From contig CALJTT010000005.1 in NCBI GenBank assembly GCA_937975855.1, forward strand, positions 1 through 52,944: a stretch of 52,944 nt of DNA, in the 5' to 3' direction. How positions within the stretch are numbered: position 1 is the stretch's first letter; the number at the start of each line of letters is the position of its first letter. The notes under the pieces were generated by a model. That model was not told the origin of the DNA, ran no database searches, and saw nothing but the letters and a program-made list of their open reading frames with translations. Below, one piece after another: positions 23,133 through 52,277 of the stretch. The DNA is from Minisyncoccota bacterium. Its GTDB lineage: Bacteria; Patescibacteriota; Minisyncoccia; Phycocordibacterales; UBA918. Both the position numbers and the translations under genes were made by a program.

Positions 23133-23204
23133 GCACCTATAGTGAAATGGATATCATTACTGACTTCGGATCAGTCGTTGGGGGTTCGAATCCCTCTGGG
23201 TGCA
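23133..23204 (+). tRNA. tRNA-Arg (TCG)
   Basis: Cloverleaf; ACTGA-CTTCGGA-TCAGT anticodon arm; GGTTCGAATCC; CCA not encoded. Confidence 0.95.
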
Positions 23205-24796: not shown

Positions 24797-24867
24797 GCGG
24801 CTATAGTTAAGTGGTATAACACATCGTTGCCAACGATGAATCAAGAGTTCGATTCTCTTTAGCCGCA
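24797..24867 (+). tRNA. tRNA-Gly (GCC)
   Basis: Cloverleaf; CATCG-TTGCCAA-CGATG anticodon arm. Confidence 0.96.
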
Positions 24868-27063: not shown

Positions 27064-27134
27064 TCGGGGAGCGGAGAATCGAACTCCGGCCACACGCTCC
27101 CAAAGCGCGTACACTACCATTATGCTACACCCCG
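27064..27134 (-). tRNA. tRNA-Pro (TGG)
   Basis: CGGGGTG...CGCGC-TTTGGGA-GCGTG...GTTCGATTC...CCCCGA. Confidence 0.95.
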
Positions 27135-39315: not shown

Positions 39316-39386
39316 GCGGGATTAGTTAAATGGTATAACATCTGCCTTCCAAGCAGAGGTCAGGAGTTCGATTCCCCTATCCCGCA
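39316..39386 (+). tRNA. tRNA-Gly (TCC), integration target
   Basis: Cloverleaf; TCTGC-CTTCCAA-GCAGA anticodon arm. Confidence 0.96.
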
Positions 39387-45243: not shown

Positions 45244-47364
45244 ATGAAAGAAGATGGATTTCCGCCACCAGAGAGAGAAGTTGACGCTATAGAAATTTTG
45301 GAAGAGCGTTTTCCTGAATCTGAATATGTTTCAGAGATAACCCACCCAGAAACTGGCGAGTCTTTTCGGGTTTTTGACTTGCAAACAATGAAAGACTTTG
45401 TTGGCAAGAGGCTGGAAGTTTCTTTGCAAAACAAAAAACACCGCGTCAATAAATTCAAAGTCTTAAACGCTTTGTTTGAGAGACATCAAGGAGAAATTTG
45501 TCTAACTTCTGAGCAAGTTTCACAAGGTAATTTTGATGCGAAACCTTTATTCTACTCCCCGGTCTCTGCCGAGAGTGCAGGAGATTCACTTGAAATCGCA
45601 GACGCTGAATTCCAGATACCTTTATGGGAATTAAGGCCTACAGAACTTAGCGATCGTGATCGAGAATATCCTACAGAAGGAGAAGACTCTCTCACTAACC
45701 TTGAAGCATATGCAGGAATTACATTATTTCATCCAGATTACGGTGATGCTAGGCGCAACCCAAGGGATGGTAAATTATACGTAAAGAATCCTGACTATGA
45801 CTCACAAGATCCCGAGAGTCCCAAAAGAATAGAGCTCAACGATACTGCTCTTCGTTTGTATAATTTGGCCAGCGCCTTGAGAACTAGAAAAACTGCAGAC
45901 GGTCTCGAGAATAGGACTGCCCGAGAGGGTCTATTAGAAGACTTGCCGAACTTGTTAGCGAGTGGCGCGCTAAAATTAGAGGACTTGCCAGAAGTAACCT
46001 TGTCAAAAGATGGAGGGTATCATGAAGACTTTATTGACAAGCAAGTTGCAAAAAATGGATTTGTGAACCTGGCTGGCGTTCGCCAGTATTCTGGCAAACA
46101 ATATGCTGGTATGGAAGTTCGTTCACTAGGAAAAGAAAATGCGATAGTTTTTGATTCCGAAGGAAATTTGGTTTCCAGCTTTACAGTAGTGCCAAAAGGA
46201 TTAGCGATTACAGACGAGGTGGAGAGTACGGGTAAGATTATCCCCCGGACTAACGCCAAGTTAACCAAGCCGATCCACGTTAACTACAAAAAACTGGTCC
46301 CTGATGTTGATGAAGGATTTCGTTCGGAAACAGTTATTCATAAACGGGAGGCAATCGCAGCACAAGTTACGCAGGCAGTTAGGCAGATCTTAGAGCTTGC
46401 AAATAACGCTGAGGCGTTGCTAAAAAGTGAGTACAATGAAGATATTGTTGACGCCAACATGGTCACAGCAGTCCGGAATGATTTACTTGATCAGGCGAAA
46501 AGGGTGATTGTTTTAGCGAGTACCAGCCCTGACGCCGAAATTCTAGAACAACAGTTAGAGATCTTTGAGGCAGACACTCGTGCATTCGTGGCGTTGAGTA
46601 AAAACACAGGCTTAGAACAATTGCTTGAAAGACCACTAGAAAAAGTTCCAGCCTCCGAGTTATCAGAGGATGACAAAACAACCATGCGTGATTTACTGGA
46701 GGCTAATTATTTGGCTGAATATCCTGGCGAAGAAAACGAATCTTTCCGTGACGGCGTCGCCGCTTCTTTTGAAGATGCTTTACAATTACCGGATACAGAA
46801 TTTTTTATACTTCGTGATCAAGACCGAATAGTGAGTTTCAATCGGTTTGACCACATGGAAGATAAACAGGGTCAGTTGCAATATTTTGGCTCCTTTAATG
46901 CCAGCCCTCTATATAAGGGAATAGGTGGAAATTTGTTAGAAGAAACTATTGCTGTACGTTTGCAAGAAACAGAGAGAATCTTTGCCCATTGCGATCCCAA
47001 CTCCGTCATCAGCCAGAAGTACATCGAGTCAGGTTTTTCAGCCACGCAGTTAGGTGAAGCTTGGGGTAAGCCAAGTTTTGAAATCTGGCGTTCCAGAAAA
47101 TCAAACGACGATCTGAAAACCAAAGTAATGTCAATTGAAGATTTAAAAGATCTGGCCTCGGTTTCTGTGAGTCCAGATGATGATTATTTTGTACGTGAGG
47201 TTGAAGAGAAAGACTCTTTCGAAGAGCTTGATGATGGACTATCTTATCTTTTGACTCGTTATTTTACACACGAAGGCAAAACTTACGCTGCGTTTGAGCT
47301 AAATACAGAATTATCTAAATCTTTTGTACACGTAGAGCCTGAAGAGGAAGGGCTTGTTGCCTAG
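45244..47364 (+). CDS. Large acidic protein with C-terminal GNAT-like domain
   Basis: 706 aa; FGSFNASPLYKGIGG...FAHC...YIESGF. Confidence 0.7.
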   Translation: MKEDGFPPPEREVDAIEILEERFPESEYVSEITHPETGESFRVFDLQTMKDFVGKRLEVSLQNKKHRVNKFKVLNALFERHQGEICLTSEQVSQGNFDAKPLFYSPVSAESAGDSLEIADAEFQIPLWELRPTELSDRDREYPTEGEDSLTNLEAYAGITLFHPDYGDARRNPRDGKLYVKNPDYDSQDPESPKRIELNDTALRLYNLASALRTRKTADGLENRTAREGLLEDLPNLLASGALKLEDLPEVTLSKDGGYHEDFIDKQVAKNGFVNLAGVRQYSGKQYAGMEVRSLGKENAIVFDSEGNLVSSFTVVPKGLAITDEVESTGKIIPRTNAKLTKPIHVNYKKLVPDVDEGFRSETVIHKREAIAAQVTQAVRQILELANNAEALLKSEYNEDIVDANMVTAVRNDLLDQAKRVIVLASTSPDAEILEQQLEIFEADTRAFVALSKNTGLEQLLERPLEKVPASELSEDDKTTMRDLLEANYLAEYPGEENESFRDGVAASFEDALQLPDTEFFILRDQDRIVSFNRFDHMEDKQGQLQYFGSFNASPLYKGIGGNLLEETIAVRLQETERIFAHCDPNSVISQKYIESGFSATQLGEAWGKPSFEIWRSRKSNDDLKTKVMSIEDLKDLASVSVSPDDDYFVREVEEKDSFEELDDGLSYLLTRYFTHEGKTYAAFELNTELSKSFVHVEPEEEGLVA

Positions 47365-48155
47365 ATCTCTACTCCACCAGCACATCCCCACAAACTCTCA
47401 AATAAATACTTGTGTGTACCAGCAATAAACTGGTCGGTGATAATGATCCCCACCATGTATTCGTCAGTCAACGTAATATAAGACACTTTGTTGTCATATA
47501 TCTGCATGACGGTCTGAAAGGAAGAAAGCGACTCGCCAGCCTTTATGAGCTTGGTGTGAGTCACTTCTCCGTCATACGAAGTCAAAAATTTTCGGGCCTC
47601 AGGAGAATCAATTACTAAACCACGCTTCTTTACATCTTTGTCTTCCCTCATAACGGAATACTCGGCGTTGAGATCAGGTATATATTTAGAAATAGATTCC
47701 AGATCTGCGTAGGTAAGAATCTCTTCTGTGGCAGTGAGGCTATCCATCAACACTTCCCAAACTCCGTCCTTTCCTTCATAAAACTGCACACCTGGCTTTC
47801 CGACACTTAGGTTAAATAGAGACGATAGTTTTCCAGAGGTGGTCAAGAACTGTTGTCTGGTCCGTTCGATACGCTCTTTTTGGTCGTCGATTACTTTAGA
47901 TATCGCCACTGGATGTTTTGGCACGAAACGCGCCACCTTGCTGCCAGTGCTTACTTTTTGGGCTAGTTCAAGAGTAATTAATTCCTCAAGTATTTTATAT
48001 ACAAATGGCCGTGATAGGGCCGTACCGCTTGGAATAGCTTTAGCGATAGAGCTTGCTGGAGACTCTCCCAGCTTTAAAAGCACCTCATATACAATAGCTT
48101 GCTCGCTTGAAAGGCCAGCATCGGTGATTTGTTGGGTATATTCTAATTGGATCAT
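47361..48155 (-). CDS. TrmB-family transcriptional regulator
   Basis: AGLSSEQAIVYEVLL, KPGVQFYEGKDG, IYDNKV, FESLW. Confidence 0.9.
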   Translation of the reverse strand: MIQLEYTQQITDAGLSSEQAIVYEVLLKLGESPASSIAKAIPSGTALSRPFVYKILEELITLELAQKVSTGSKVARFVPKHPVAISKVIDDQKERIERTRQQFLTTSGKLSSLFNLSVGKPGVQFYEGKDGVWEVLMDSLTATEEILTYADLESISKYIPDLNAEYSVMREDKDVKKRGLVIDSPEARKFLTSYDGEVTHTKLIKAGESLSSFQTVMQIYDNKVSYITLTDEYMVGIIITDQFIAGTHKYLFESLWGCAGGVEI

Positions 48156-48184
48156 GGTTGTATAATAACAGCTATTCTTGTAAT

Positions 48185-48202
48185 TGTCACAATACTGTGA
48201 CA
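48185..48202. promoter_or_regulatory. Palindromic operator candidate TGTCACA-ATAC-TGTGACA
   Basis: Perfect 7-bp inverted repeat 30 bp upstream of the TrmB start. Confidence 0.65.
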
Positions 48203-48283
48203 GAAATATGTTGATAAATAAGTAATTTGAGCACTTAAAAACAACAATATAAGCAGATATAGCAACATGTTTGTATAAAGTAT

Positions 48284-48312
48284 TTGACAATACAATAATA
48301 ATCTGCTATAGT
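48284..48312 (+). promoter_or_regulatory. Strong sigma70 promoter TTGACA-17-TATAGT with extended TG
   Basis: Direct motif match. Confidence 0.8.
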
Positions 48313-48318
48313 ATAGAA

Positions 48319-48917
48319 AGTTAAGAAGCAAGACAAGGAGAGAGAACCGAGTCACTTCAAGGAGAGAGATCCTTCCAGGGAATCAAGAGAAATACAACCC
48401 GAGACGCTCACGCAGCAAAGCTGCTGGTGACCACAGCCAAAAGTGTGGCAGACAAAGAGTGAAAGGAACAACTTGTATCACTCAACGATTCGTTTGCAGA
48501 TGCTGGAAAGAGGCCGCAAACCCCTTTCATCACAAGGCATCACCCGCAAAACCCGCAATCATTGATTGCAGGAACGTCGGCTGGGCACAACTCCCTAACC
48601 AAGAGTTGTTTCCAGAAACGTTCCTTAGCCCTGACCTGATAAGTCAAGGATGAGAGGAGAGAGAATTGACAACTGAATATCAAACAAGCTGCCGGGCTAA
48701 ACACCTGGTGGCAGAAACTGGAACACAAGCGAACCAAAAACTGCTTGTGTCTCCACACTACACCCCAAGCCTTAGATAGGAGTTGGAGGGTGGTGTGGCG
48801 ATCTCAGGAGAGAGCCCGTTCAGTATCTATGCAGGGAGTACCTGTAGTAGCAATAGTCTGAATGAAAACGGTCCGCCATACGCAATAGTGCGTAGGATCA
48901 CAGAGGGAGTACCTCAA
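48319..48917 (+). ncRNA. ~600-nt hairpin-array RNA / 5' leader
   Basis: About 12 consecutive stems; GGAGAGAG x4; AGG-GAGTA-CCT x2; no convincing ORF. Confidence 0.7.
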
Positions 48918-49616
48918 ATGCAAATCGTATTTAAAACCGCCGATGACCGTGATTTTTCCAGTGTTGATTTTCAACGCTGGATTGAGACGGAAGGGGTCGG
49001 TTTCGAGACTGACTTTGATTCTTGTGCCAGCTTCTCTGAAGCGGGCAGCGAAAAACGCCCACGTTTAGTGTGGACGACTTCTTGGTCTGGTTTTGTTTAC
49101 AAGTGGATCGTAAACAAAAAGTGGTGGGTCTATGATGGTGCTGAGAAAGGTTTCTTAGCCCAAGACCTCCTGCCGCCAGTTCTGGCTGAGGCCAAAGACG
49201 TGGAGATCGTCCGTGTCTTTGGTACTTACGGAAACTTCGAGGGCCCAGATGCTCTCGAATCCTACCAGAGCGCAAAGCGCTGGTGGGAAGAAATCACAGG
49301 GGTCTTCTACGACTCCTTTGAAACGTTCGGCTTCTTCCATCACGGTGGGTGGAAGAAGTCGGAATGGACCAAGCTCGTTTATGAGCTGGTTCAGAACCCC
49401 GAAATGCAGTTCGAAAACCTCGACGAAGCCGAGGTTGCTCGACTGGAAAAAGCCGAGGCGATCACATGGGCCTATCGTAGGCTTTGTGACCGCACTTCGG
49501 GTGGTCACAGTATTGGCGCAGGACGTATGAGCCTCCGCCAATTTGCTGAATTGATCGTCTACATGCGGTCAATTCACCAGGATCATTGGCCGAATACGCC
49601 AGTGACTCCGATGTAA
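48918..49616 (+). CDS. Hypothetical protein (232 aa, Trp-rich)
   Basis: ATG 48918 follows an SD-containing hairpin. Confidence 0.75.
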   Translation: MQIVFKTADDRDFSSVDFQRWIETEGVGFETDFDSCASFSEAGSEKRPRLVWTTSWSGFVYKWIVNKKWWVYDGAEKGFLAQDLLPPVLAEAKDVEIVRVFGTYGNFEGPDALESYQSAKRWWEEITGVFYDSFETFGFFHHGGWKKSEWTKLVYELVQNPEMQFENLDEAEVARLEKAEAITWAYRRLCDRTSGGHSIGAGRMSLRQFAELIVYMRSIHQDHWPNTPVTPM

Positions 49617-49621
49617 AAACT

Positions 49622-49832
49622 GTTCCGGGGCGTTCGCGCCTCGGAACCTTCTCGAACTGAAGTAAAAAGTTTATGGTTTTCTTAAACTACAAGATGGCAT
49701 CTTGGTTTGAGATTCTTATAAAGTGTCTGATTTGTTCAGATGCTTTTAGGAAATACCGCTCAAACCGGCCTGCTTAGCAGGAAACAATAGTTTGGTGAGT
49801 CTCATGATGAGGCGATAAATCCGGGAGGATTA
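49622..49832 (+). ncRNA. Intercistronic hairpin array
   Basis: About six adjacent stems, including GTTCCGGGGCG-TTCG-CGCCTCGGAAC. Confidence 0.55.
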
Positions 49833-49835
49833 GAT

Positions 49836-50261
49836 ATGCTCAAGTTTGAAGCAACTTTCGGCGTCACCGCCGGTTACGGTCACGGCAACGCCGGTGGCAC
49901 CGCCGATCCAGCGGCCGTCGTGGCCCGCGTTTGGCGTGAGGCACTGGAGGCAGAATTTGCTGTTTCCAAAATTTTGGTCGGCGGCATTGTGACCGCCGGT
50001 CGGGTGGTTTACCCGGCCGACTTTGGCTGCCCGGATGATGGGGAGGTCGTCGCCACAGTCAGTGGCGATGCTAATCCAAAATTCGTCGAGCCTGACAAGC
50101 TCGACGATTTCCGCGAGGCGGTTATTCGCGTCGTGGAAACGGTCAAGGACGCGCTCAAGCAAGAGCGCGTTCAGCTGGTATTCGCCAGCAACTTTGGGTT
50201 CGTTTACTACGAACCCGAGTCGACCGGCGGGACGCAGCGCTGGGGTTGCGCTGCAGACTAA
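49836..50261 (+). CDS. Hypothetical protein (141 aa)
   Basis: GGAGG SD; alpha/beta pattern; GVTAGY and FGCP-x-x-GE. Confidence 0.75.
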   Translation: MLKFEATFGVTAGYGHGNAGGTADPAAVVARVWREALEAEFAVSKILVGGIVTAGRVVYPADFGCPDDGEVVATVSGDANPKFVEPDKLDDFREAVIRVVETVKDALKQERVQLVFASNFGFVYYEPESTGGTQRWGCAAD

Positions 50262-50482
50262 AAGAATGAAGAGTGACGACAGGTCGCTCTTCATTTTCCG
50301 GCAGGAAATAAATCATGCAGGTTGGTTAAGTCTCGCAGGTTGGTTTGGTTACCAGACTGCGAGCTCCATTTGAGGACTTCATTGCGTATGCGGTGGAGAG
50401 TTCAAATGGGGATATAAAACCCAAAGAAATGAGGAGTAACACTCCGCCAAAAGTGAGTGTAAAAAATTGAAGGAGAAAAGAA

Positions 50483-51193
50483 GTGGGAAAGAAACGTAGA
50501 GGCAATAGAAAAAATAATTTTTCTCCTCTGGCTACAACGCCAGAGGCAGCGGAAAAAATAAACAAAAATCAGCGCCTGCAAGAAATTTTGCAGGCGCTTG
50601 GCGCCGAACCGACACTCTATCGAAAGATAGGGAGTCATTCGTATTACGGTACGGGTGGCGATAGATGGAGGTCATCGACCCTCAGGTCCTACCAGACGGT
50701 CACCTATCAGGTGACCGGCGGAAAAAGGATTGATATCGGTGATCTCTCCCAAAAGGAGCTGGTCAATGCGGGAATTCGCATTGTGGATCAATCATGGGAA
50801 GAAGCGCAGGCGGCTGCCGAAAAGCAACGTCGCCTGCGTAATGCTGTCCGGCGTGCGATTGAAACGACGCGATATGAGATCGTGTCGTTTAGTAAAAAGT
50901 CGAACACCAAAGGCATTCGAGCTAGCCGCCAGGGTACGTTACTACAGCTGCGCGCTCGACCGCATGATTACGGTGAGCGCGTAAACGTAAATGGTGACTT
51001 TGGTGGTCATCGTTTACGCAACATGGGTGGCGGATACACGAGTATTCGCCGTGTCGACCAAAACAAGTGGGTGAACATGCCTGCAAAGTTCTGGTCACTT
51101 CAGCAAGACGAATTGTGTGACTTTCTAGCACAGTTCGTCACAGAAGAGGATTTGGCCCAAGAAAACAAGGGAGAATGTCGTGACGCAATTTAG
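50483..51193 (+). CDS. Basic hypothetical protein (236 aa)
   Basis: AAGGAG SD before GTG; Arg/Lys-rich. Confidence 0.7.
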   Translation: MGKKRRGNRKNNFSPLATTPEAAEKINKNQRLQEILQALGAEPTLYRKIGSHSYYGTGGDRWRSSTLRSYQTVTYQVTGGKRIDIGDLSQKELVNAGIRIVDQSWEEAQAAAEKQRRLRNAVRRAIETTRYEIVSFSKKSNTKGIRASRQGTLLQLRARPHDYGERVNVNGDFGGHRLRNMGGGYTSIRRVDQNKWVNMPAKFWSLQQDELCDFLAQFVTEEDLAQENKGECRDAI

Positions 51194-51599
51194 TCTTAAA
51201 TCCAGGAGGCGACTCTTAGAGAGTCGCCTCGACTCTCTCCAGAAGCGAGTCGAAAACGCGAAATGGTTCTTGCTAGGACTAGATGTCCAGCAGAAGCCTT
51301 TTGTTCTCGGGGAGGAAAGTATCTTCTATGGAGTTAGGGTATATCCTTACTTCCATGAAGAGGTTGATAAACTCGAACGAGAAATAAAAAAAGACCTGAA
51401 AAGGGTCAAAGACAAAATTACCGAGATCAACGTGCACCTCAAGCGAGGTGCACGACCGAAAGAAAAAGATTTGGGTCGAGCGTTCACCGAATCTCGGTTC
51501 GGGACTAGTGACAGAGTTTACTTCGTTACGAGTCATGTCTTTGCTGGCCAAGAAATAAACGGACAGACGCTTGAATATATCAATCGTTTATGCAAATGA
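51180..51599 (+). CDS. Basic hypothetical protein (139 aa)
   Basis: GGGAG SD; overlaps the previous gene; terminator 51630-51665 follows. Confidence 0.65.
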   Translation: MTQFSLKSRRRLLESRLDSLQKRVENAKWFLLGLDVQQKPFVLGEESIFYGVRVYPYFHEEVDKLEREIKKDLKRVKDKITEINVHLKRGARPKEKDLGRAFTESRFGTSDRVYFVTSHVFAGQEINGQTLEYINRLCK

Positions 51600-51694
51600 T
51601 TGATCGAGGTTCTTCCAAAGTAAAGGTTACCCCAACCGCACGGTTATGTGGTTGGGGGTTTTATTAGACTCCCGAAACATCGGTGGTCTATAGA

Positions 51695-51815
51695 GTTATT
51701 CCTACAAAACAGACGATATACCATACTGCGTACATTTTCGTGTCACGACCACTGTCGGGCTCGATCTATCTCTCTCCGTGTACGCTTGGTATGTCTTCTG
51801 TGTTGTGGGTGTAAT
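51695..51815 (+). ncRNA. Long irregular stem-loop with pyrimidine-rich bubble
   Basis: 51701-51723 pairs with 51787-51809 (G-U pairs on +); ATCTCTCTCC lies in the bubble. Confidence 0.55.
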
Positions 51816-52004
51816 GTATTTAAAACACAAAACCGCCCTGGCTGAGGACGGTCTTGCAATTGTGTGATGGGAAATAGTGGTGGTAGCCTCTAAGTATTTC
51901 CTACATAGTGTTTTACCTCCACTACCCAAAAATTATAGCATACGAGTTTTGAGAAAAAGAAAAGGCGGGACAATTAGTCCCGCCTTTTCTTTGTACCTGC
52001 CTGT

Positions 52005-52277
52005 TTATTTTACAGAGTCCTTTAGAGCCTTTGCTGCTCGGAACTTTGGTACCCGCATTGCTGGCACTTGAACAGCTTCTCCTGTTCGTGGGTTTCGAGC
52101 TTCTCGAGCGTTTCGCATCTTTGCTTCAAAGATACCAAACCCTGCGACTGATACTTGATCCCCATCTTTCATCGCTGCTTCGATTGTTTCGAAGACGCAG
52201 TCTACTGCGCGCTCTGCGTCAGCTTTTGTAGTGTCGAGTACCTCGTGCACTTTGCTGGTGATGTCTGCTTTGTTCAT
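52005..52277 (-). CDS. hup: HU DNA-binding protein
   Basis: MNKAD...GFGIF...ARNPRTGE...PKFRAAKALK. Confidence 0.96.
   Translation of the reverse strand: MNKADITSKVHEVLDTTKADAERAVDCVFETIEAAMKDGDQVSVAGFGIFEAKMRNAREARNPRTGEAVQVPAMRVPKFRAAKALKDSVK

Follow-up and report, generated by a model that had tools for sequence, protein, structure and literature searches.

The window analysed here is the whole 52,944-nt stretch of contig CALJTT010000005.1 (assembly GCA_937975855.1, Minisyncoccota bacterium). The genome that holds it (G000) is 66% complete and has a mean G+C content of 46.4%. Near the right end of the window lies a unit of ~3.7 kb (48.3–52.0 kb) that consists of a long structured leader at its 5′ end, four cargo genes and a conserved 3′ hairpin. 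An earlier note on this DNA had described 48284–48917 as a large unclassified non-coding RNA or leader acting as a protein sponge or scaffold. We are confident that a real, conserved RNA is encoded here, at the head of this operon. Transcript ends are inferred positions throughout, and SD denotes a Shine-Dalgarno sequence. The features of the leader and of the 3′ end are:

48284–48312, + strand: sigma-70-type promoter, TTGACA-17-TATAGT with an extended TG, 11/12 consensus positions
48318–48423, + strand: leader 5′ domain with two GGAGAGAG copies (48337, 48361), a AGGGAAUC element and the hairpins GAGCCGAG..GCUC and 48410–48424
48424–48624, + strand: conserved core with the hairpin CCACA/UGUGG, a candidate pseudoknot GUUUGC/GCAAAC, helices Pa and Pb, CACCCG and two 3′ hairpins with the loop CUAACCA
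48630–48735, + strand: leader 3′ module with hairpin 48630–48649, the third GGAGAGAG (48656–48663), UUGACAACUGAAUAU and hairpin 48688–48713
48736–48917, + strand: less conserved leader part with hairpin 48723–48750, module 48751–48814, the GAGUA hairpins, hairpin 48879–48894 and the SD
48830–48846 and 48901–48915, + strand: GAGUA hairpins, with the 10-mer GGGAGTACCT in both
51702–51809, + strand: conserved 3′ hairpin closing the unit, exposing AUCUCUCUCCG, with CUCUCUCC at 51770–51777

The promoter, which the earlier note had called near-consensus, is indeed close to it. Across homologous loci TTGACAATACA...TGnTAT followed by AGTTAA is kept, and the transcript probably starts near 48318. The four + strand copies of GGAGAGAG (48337, 48361, 48656 and 48807) stand exactly where the note had placed them. 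Counted on both strands, the 53-kb window holds 6 copies compared with 1.26 expected, a number that 0/100 shuffles reach, and the remaining two are copies of the complement at 51233 and 51770, within the same locus. The two GAGUA hairpins were also recovered, the second holding the SD as noted. Their 10-mer GGGAGTACCT occurs twice (48834 and 48905; 0.05 expected), and the second copy overlaps the SD, 9–14 nt ahead of the ATG at 48918. This hairpin pair, in which the note had seen a mimic of a translational operator, is real in the window but not general in the family; GGAGTACC is seen only in a few other leaders.

The stretch 48318–48920 has a minimum free energy of −198.3 kcal/mol (z = −6.5), and 0/20 shuffles fold as well. 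The possibility of a coding region or a decayed gene was examined, and the leader turned out to be non-coding: its open reading frames (ORFs) are only 31–72 amino acids (aa) long, and its homologues vary by variable-length hairpins and indels. No terminator-like site was found on the + strand of 48284–48917, and the leader runs on into the first gene. A TTG mini-ORF right after the third GGAGAGAG (48666–48681) was considered as a gene and rejected, since its conservation looks nucleotide-level. Between loci the early codons of this frame resemble one another (M-T/K-T/I-E/K); several divergent members have a stop at codon 5, and in others the frame continues for 9–45 codons.

A search of the whole window against Rfam 15 at gathering thresholds returned only four tRNAs, elsewhere in the window (23133–23204, 24797–24867 and 39316–39386 on the + strand, 27064–27134 on the − strand). 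For 48100–49100, searched with E up to 10, there were four matches of 8–19 bits compared with cut-offs of 70–100. None of the large RNA families that the note had brought up (OLE, ROOL, GOLLD, CsrB) was matched, and the same goes for HEARO, raiA, EAR, RNase P, tmRNA and 6S RNA. The description as a large unclassified RNA or leader holds on three grounds: no Rfam family, strong covariation (below) and no terminator-like site before the first gene.

Homologues were found with BLAST in two congeners, in which an opposite-strand TrmB-type gene, the same promoter and the homologous RNA are followed by different genes. Short BLAST matches in three other genomes (G017, G028 and G052) were chance hits, and the two inspected (L005 and L006) are coding regions. 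An exact 22-base core motif is present in 8/128 genomes of the genus and at 28 loci in metagenome contigs, and gave 0 matches in viral contigs. In a collection of species-representative genomes it has 10 loci, which are in metagenome-assembled genomes (MAGs) of Patescibacteria and in one 2.8-kb contig binned elsewhere. Although filed under a Bacteroidales MAG, this contig (L027) has a Patescibacteria-type TrmB gene as well as the RNA and was probably misbinned. All carriers of the leader RNA are MAGs.

From the genus, genome-collection and metagenome searches 26 distinct leader cores were collected, for which RNAalifold predicted 47 pairs; compensatory changes were seen in 29. We re-aligned 28 sequences with a covariance model, R1 (231 positions, 42 pairs, spanning 48424–48624 in the window), which the window core matches at 181.9 bits. 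In this alignment 95.9% of the cells are paired, 29/42 pairs have changed on both sides, and 0/500 shuffles reach any observed measure. The carrier relatives are not independent, and shuffle controls therefore overstate the significance; controls with partners slid by 1–3 columns are the safer guide and gave 9–12 compensatory pairs with 37–42% paired. The R1 alignment was fitted to the model and thus leans towards structure; alignments made with MAFFT only show the same helices. The claim of a structured RNA had been tied to covarying homologues, and these exist. Even the seemingly invariant CCACA/UGUGG hairpin is changed to CCAGA/UCUGG, CUACA/UGUAG and CCUAG/CUAGG among further members, with such changes in G135, G149 and G237. 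Inside the loop of helix Pb a pseudoknot GUUUGC/GCAAAC is likely from the alignment. It has one clear compensatory event (L050) and one ambiguous (L035), and because only one is clear it stays a candidate.

With R1 the RNA was found in 13/128 genomes of the genus, one copy each (11 full-length, 1 fragment and 1 marginal), and in 5/150 other genomes of the order, representing five families, at 20–108 bits. Because of this distribution and the covariation, the leader RNA is, judged by sequence comparison, real, sporadic (~1/10 of the genus genomes) and old.

Across the 26 loci the conserved part of the leader spans 48318 to about 48735, and its sequence similarity in BLAST extends from 48318 to about 48722. 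In the 5′ domain one hairpin (columns 72–74/95–97 of alignment A3) has compensatory changes in 9–15 sequences per pair. Past the core, GGAGAGAGAcUUUGACAA (48656–48673) is retained even in the most divergent members, and the hairpin 48688–48713 recurs in many leaders. The module CUCCACAC...GUGUGGCGAUCUCA-GGAGAGAG (48751–48814) follows the pattern CUCCAYR-hairpin-YRUGGGGAnCU-GGAGAGAG and is found in 5/28 leaders when the pattern is applied strictly. Of the roughly 12 stems proposed in the earlier note, 48412–48424, 48555–48569 and 48570–48625 have compensatory changes in relatives, and 48753–48798 forms this module together with the GGAGAGAG at 48807. The stems at 48723–48750 and 48879–48894 lack comparative support, and 48457–48483 falls outside the consensus fold. 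A GA motif (GAGAGAG or GGAGAGA) is strongly enriched, with 83 copies in 24 leaders (6.4 expected) at recurring positions; the antisense strand of the same leaders has only 2. There are 3–5 GA motifs per leader, at conserved positions predicted to be in linkers.

The 3′ hairpin exposes the invariant (A)AUCUCUCUCCG, which is the exact complement (CUCUCUCCG) of the GGAGAGAG in the leader, and CUCUCUCC falls in its predicted loop. Such a hairpin was identified downstream of the RNA in 11/14 genomes (9 clear and 2 divergent, the latter in G237 and G205), at +1.2 to +10 kb and each time at the end of a G+C-rich, co-directional block. In two genomes where it was missed (G065 and G077) the contigs end too early. 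Its closing stem of 20 pairs is 90.1% paired with 12 compensatory pairs, compared with 4–7 in the slid controls, and is matched by 0/500 shuffles. The element folds better on the + strand in 4/6 cases and equally well on both in 2/6. The other 14 copies of the 8-mer in G000 lie in unrelated contexts, and the hairpin context occurs only in this locus. An exact complement of GGAGAGAG in a conserved 3′ hairpin points to RNA-RNA pairing, and in 7/9 loci a GGAGAGAG copy takes part in the most favourable duplex predicted for the leader and the 3′ loop.

Two further elements were seen around the 3′ end. G135 (L079) has a second AAAUCUCUCUCCG copy at about +3932 from the RNA, inside its 10-kb cargo and ~6 kb before the terminal 3′ hairpin, which may mark two tandem cassettes. 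In the window, a G+C-rich inverted repeat with a flanking A-run and T-run (AAAAGGCGGGAC...GTCCCGCCTTTTC, 51960–51989) lies between the 3′ hairpin and an opposite-strand HU gene, and looks like a two-way terminator.

Strong folding is not confined to the two ends. In 240-nt windows the fold z-scores are −3 to −13 from about 48560 to 52040, compared with −2.7 to +2.4 in the adjoining genes, in a scan that is noisy at 15 shuffles per window. With 200 shuffles, z is −8.64 for 49960–50259 inside the second cargo gene and −7.67 for 50483–50782 inside the third, and −1.58 for a control inside the upstream ‘big’ gene. The folds of the coding segments are chains of near-perfect hairpins of 8–12 bp. The same trend was observed in G135, G009, G081 and G067, where strongly negative z-scores are confined to the stretch bounded by the 5′ RNA and the 3′ hairpin. 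The dozen stems of the earlier note are therefore the start of a much longer run, because the structure continues to the 3′ hairpin.

The cargo genes in the window are:

48918–49616, + strand: c1, 232 aa, no family
49836–50261, + strand: c2, 141 aa, Mvol_0529 family (PADLOC PDLC01067, E 1.6e-19, residues 2–117/141)
50483–51193, + strand: c3, no family
51180–51599, + strand: c4, no family

PHROGs and NCBIfam gave nothing useful for c1, c3, c4 or the ‘big’ protein, and the ESM Atlas had only weak leads for c1 (at most 0.78). Across loci, cargo ORFs (crude longest-ORF calls) are co-directional with the RNA, start 20–700 nt past the conserved modules and differ from one locus to the next. Their G+C content is 50–61% in the window, compared with the genome mean of 46.4%, and 63–67% over 10 kb in G135, compared with 41–47% in the flanks. 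Type III CRISPR accessory families were detected with PADLOC in 9/25 distinct loci (12 proteins) and comprise Mvol_0529, Csx3-AAA, Csx3, Csx15, Csx16 and ‘Unk_01, sometimes fused to CARF’. Homologues of Mvol_0529 downstream of the RNA are also found in L048/L051 and G065. Mvol_0529 and the other accessory families are defined in PMC6546367. The Csx3-AAA protein of G150 is 52–56% identical to genes annotated as Csx3 on Nostoc plasmids.

The presence of Cas10 and CsrA was checked in five RNA-bearing genomes, four of which are at least 94% complete. Cas10 (TIGR02578, TIGR02577) was found in 0/5, with positive controls in 5–6 reference genomes, and c2 is not encoded beside a type III cas module with Cas10, in a genome of only 66% completeness. 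Among the other cargo products are NDK, DHH-like, PPDK_N/PEP-utilising, DEAD helicase, ankyrin and MoxR/VWA proteins as well as toxin-antitoxin pairs, and most of the cargo has no family. No integrase or transposase family of Pfam, NCBIfam or PADLOC was found in the scanned flank and cargo ORFs, and no replicase or capsid family in the scanned cargo. Right after the RNA in G104, G065 and G077 there are toxin-antitoxin pairs on the opposite strand (ParE/RelE-like with RHH; HicA/HicB), located at L015 10215–10709, L017 3271–4329 and L019 685–942 and apparently inserted inside the bracketed unit.

The cargo also differs from the resident genes in its ribosome-binding sites. A canonical SD 4-mer precedes the first start codon in 61% of 54 cargo ORFs compared with 9% of 407 resident ORFs (≥200 aa, G000), and if any start within 40 codons is allowed, in 91% compared with 21%; these percentages depend on rough start calls, and the chance rate is higher in G+C-rich sequence. 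The assembly of G000 itself has no 16S rRNA, and the anti-SD was read in two RNA-carrying congeners, G104 (L084) and G081 (L085), whose 16S 3′ end is GGATTAATTCCAATTGG, without CCTCC. In E. coli the corresponding place reads GGATCACCTCCTTA. The GGAGAGAG copies are therefore unlikely to act by binding the resident ribosome. The cargo SDs look foreign.

On the upstream side the following features precede the leader:

45244–47364, + strand: ‘big’ protein gene, 706 aa, convergent with the regulator gene, the ends overlapping in the window
47364–48155, − strand: TrmB/TrmBL2-like winged-helix regulator gene, divergent from the RNA promoter (Pfam TrmB PF01978, E 2e-06)
48184–48202, no strand: palindrome TTGTCACAATACTGTGACA between the two promoters, a likely operator at which binding is presumed
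48206–48217, no strand: conserved ATATGTTGATAA box following the palindrome

Over its full length the AlphaFold model of the regulator (pLDDT 76, nine sequences) resembles chains of the archaeal chromatin protein TrmBL2 (E 6e-15); it also matches TrmB (E 1.7e-09), and its C-terminal half matches proteins with the PLD fold. The product thus has the N-terminal winged helix, the coiled coil and the PLD-like C-terminal domain of the TrmB family. A homologue stands upstream of the RNA, in divergent orientation, at 34/39 loci. Two of the remaining five have no upstream sequence, and the other three (L035, L040 and L054) belong to a divergent subgroup. Where the identity of the regulator drops to 26–36%, the sequence of the core is still conserved. 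In the 8 genus loci compared, related palindromes of the form TGTCAC...GTGACA are found at this position. A second TrmB-like gene was not found in G000. The ‘big’ protein has no Pfam, NCBIfam, PHROG or PADLOC family. Its homologues (including those in L015, L019 and L020) are 700–1050 aa long and only their C-terminal ~300 aa are conserved; according to tblastn this part lies upstream of the regulator in most loci, with the gene convergent to the regulator gene there as well. The homologue in G077 has a weak GNAT-like match (Acetyltransf_1). Gene order beyond the ‘big’ and regulator genes, and beyond the 3′ element, is not common between genomes.

Our favoured explanation, to which we give a probability of roughly 0.4, is that the leader and the 3′ hairpin act in cis as an RNA chassis, which would stabilise the message and control its expression. 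One long transcript would run from the promoter at 48284–48312 through the leader and the four cargo genes to the 3′ hairpin at 51702–51809, and the neighbouring TrmBL2-like repressor would probably control the promoter. The four GGAGAGAG copies, predicted to be single-stranded between the leader helices, may pair with CUCUCUCCG in the 3′ hairpin. This end pairing, together with the dense local hairpins, could keep the message compact and shield it from nucleases, and the chassis might gate the expression of the cargo, perhaps at translation. It would in this way bracket interchangeable cargo genes of a foreign type.

Several observations weigh against the chassis. The transcript and both its ends are predictions from the DNA sequence; a search for sequencing runs with this locus found four of DNA and none of RNA, which does not bear on expression. 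No 3′ element was found within 11.5 kb in G057. The energy of the predicted 5′–3′ duplex clearly beats that of shuffled loops in only 3/9 loci (0, 5 and 7 of 200), while in the remaining loci 18–136 of 200 shuffled loops do as well, and the leader GGAGAGAG copy predicted to pair varies between loci. Read-through into the cargo is less obvious where a convergent toxin-antitoxin pair follows the RNA (G104, G065 and G077). Finally, a core that outconserves the regulator could equally belong to an RNA with a conserved binding partner in the cell.

The complex conserved junction of the core, its invariant unpaired stretches, which go with the covariation in 29/42 pairs, the candidate pseudoknot and the mutually exclusive pairings NGGU/GCCN′ and GGU/ACC are what might be expected of an aptamer. 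The leader could then sense a ligand, possibly a nucleotide messenger, for example a cyclic oligoadenylate, and switch on cargo that acts on signals of this kind, and the enrichment of Csx3, Csx3-AAA, Csx15, Csx16 and Unk_01 in the cargo (9/25 loci), with NDK and DHH-like proteins in addition, is in line with this. We regard it as unlikely, as the promoter already has a protein regulator, the first start codon is at least 290 nt past the core, and neither a terminator nor an SD-sequestering platform is conserved downstream of it; the SD hairpin of the window is unconserved. Nor is the gene set coherent: the cargo differs per locus, 16/25 cargo sets are without such families, and some hold toxin-antitoxin or MoxR/VWA genes. 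The 3′ hairpin and the structure of the coding part would be left unexplained. The leader might also be a processive antitermination or anti-silencing RNA of the put/EAR kind, which would modify RNA polymerase to read through the many hairpins of the long, foreign-type operon. The repeated GGAGAGAG and its 3′ complement play no part there. Such a role would suit a promoter-proximal element at the head of operons of 1.2–10 kb, packed with stable hairpins that could pause or terminate transcription, and a core that is conserved whatever the cargo. There is no match to EAR or any other Rfam family, even at E up to 10, and only two + strand terminator-like sites are listed in the operon (48993 and 49945), which makes this role doubtful as well.

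The protein sponge or scaffold of the earlier note would be an RNA acting in trans, whose GGAGAGAG copies bind another RNA or multiple copies of a protein and next to which the downstream genes merely happen to lie. The 3–5 GA motifs at conserved linker positions would suit this, as would the retention of the core sequence next to regulators of only 26–36% identity and the convergent next genes in three genomes. We judge it improbable. CsrA (PF02599) was found in 0/5 genomes, with positive controls in E. coli, B. subtilis and T. maritima; the conserved part is followed by no terminator in the window; and the RNA is confined to ~10% of the genus genomes, where regulator and cargo invariably accompany it. 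The RNA forms the 5′ end of a longer, hyper-structured operon, in whose own 3′ hairpin the complement of GGAGAGAG is found, and the sponge or scaffold claim was not upheld. A CsrB/RsmZ sponge in particular was rejected, there being no CsrA in the five genomes, no terminator-like + strand site in 48284–48917 and no Rfam match. The two motifs could instead work as DNA, as inverted end repeats (GGAGAGAG on the left, CTCTCTCC on the right) of a mobile or exchangeable cassette, bound for example by the TrmBL2-like or the ‘big’ protein. The motif is indeed inverted between the two borders, the cargo varies, the flanks past ‘big’/TrmB and past the 3′ hairpin are non-syntenic, and TrmBL2 is a chromatin-type DNA binder according to PDB entry titles. 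It is nevertheless hard to reconcile with helices around the motifs that covary and include G-U pairs, with a 3′ element that folds better on the + strand, with the lack of integrase or transposase families in the scanned flanks and cargo, and with 0 matches in viral contigs, and we consider it very unlikely. A long shot is that the bracketed transcript is a message for another cell, with an epibiont passing a compact, nuclease-proof and CRISPR RNA-proof mRNA to its host. The cargo SDs and G+C-rich codons would then suit the ribosomes of the host and not those of the epibiont, cargo of the ring-nuclease type (Csx3, Csx15, Csx16 and Csx3-AAA) would quench the type III CRISPR alarm of the host, and the 5′ RNA and 3′ hairpin would be signals for packaging or transfer and for end pairing. 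This explanation fits every oddity at once, but it merely fits.

If the chassis is real, it adds a new class to the large bacterial RNAs and a new type of operon organisation, in which interchangeable genes are bracketed by a conserved 5′ RNA and a 3′ hairpin complementary to it, and base pairing is selected for across the entire message including its coding sequence. Patescibacteria account for a large part of bacterial diversity, and their regulation is almost unknown. The chassis would link three puzzles, i.e., G+C-rich islands beside TrmB-like regulators in small genomes, type III CRISPR accessory genes in islands without Cas10, and canonical ribosome-binding sites in a lineage whose 16S rRNA appears to be without an anti-SD. 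The 5′ core (~200 nt, 42 supported pairs) lends itself to structure determination, and the 5′–3′ complementarity is directly testable. No description of this RNA or operon type turned up in the literature, which was represented mostly by titles and the beginnings of abstracts, subscription journals being outside it. As far as can be told, the covariance-supported core, the 3′ hairpin with its complementary motif, the bracketed hyper-structured block and the SD/anti-SD contrast are new here.

Large bacterial RNAs such as OLE, ROOL, GOLLD, HEARO and raiA resemble the leader in being hundreds of nt long, in having many covarying helices, in their sporadic occurrence and in that their biochemical role is unknown. 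Unlike them, the leader matches no covariance model, is fused to an operon and is paired with a 3′ element and a regulator gene. With the CsrB/RsmZ sponges it shares a repeated short purine motif containing GGA, but its motifs are predicted in linkers and not in hairpin loops, and the window shows no terminated stand-alone transcript. The put and EAR elements are processive antitermination leaders, and ops/RfaH leaders head horizontally acquired operons. The leader is likewise a promoter-proximal element heading long, foreign-looking operons, yet it is much larger, has no sequence or model similarity to these, and its complementarity to the 3′ end has no explanation there. In rRNA operons, leader and trailer pair to form the processing stems of RNase III. 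Complementary sequences at both ends of a long structured transcript are found here as well; only 8–10 nt are complementary, however, and the enclosed RNA is protein-coding.

Closer parallels are offered by two other systems. The STAB-SD of the Bacillus thuringiensis cryIIIA leader and the leader hairpins of ompA, aprE and ermC are 5′ stabilisers of mRNA. Shared with these are a long untranslated leader, stable hairpins, SD-like purine motifs without a start codon in range and the supposed protection of the downstream message. The leader described here is far larger, has a conserved multi-helix core and repeats its motif 3–5 times with a 3′ complement. It also differs from STAB-SD in that an SD-like element pairing with the cell's own 16S 3′ end is not seen, judged on congeners G104 and G081; their 16S rRNA is without CCUCC, which makes ribosome binding to the motif unlikely. 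The genomes of positive-strand RNA viruses and RNA phages have heavily base-paired coding RNA, and those of flaviviruses have 5′–3′ cyclisation sequences. The unit has the same combination of structured coding RNA, a structured 5′ domain, a 3′ terminal hairpin and 8–10 nt of 5′–3′ complementarity. Unlike such genomes it is encoded in chromosomal DNA behind a sigma-70 promoter, no replicase or capsid family was found in its scanned cargo and viral contigs gave 0 matches. By analogy, the chassis would thus work most like the 5′ stabilisers and the end-pairing RNA virus genomes, while being a member of neither.

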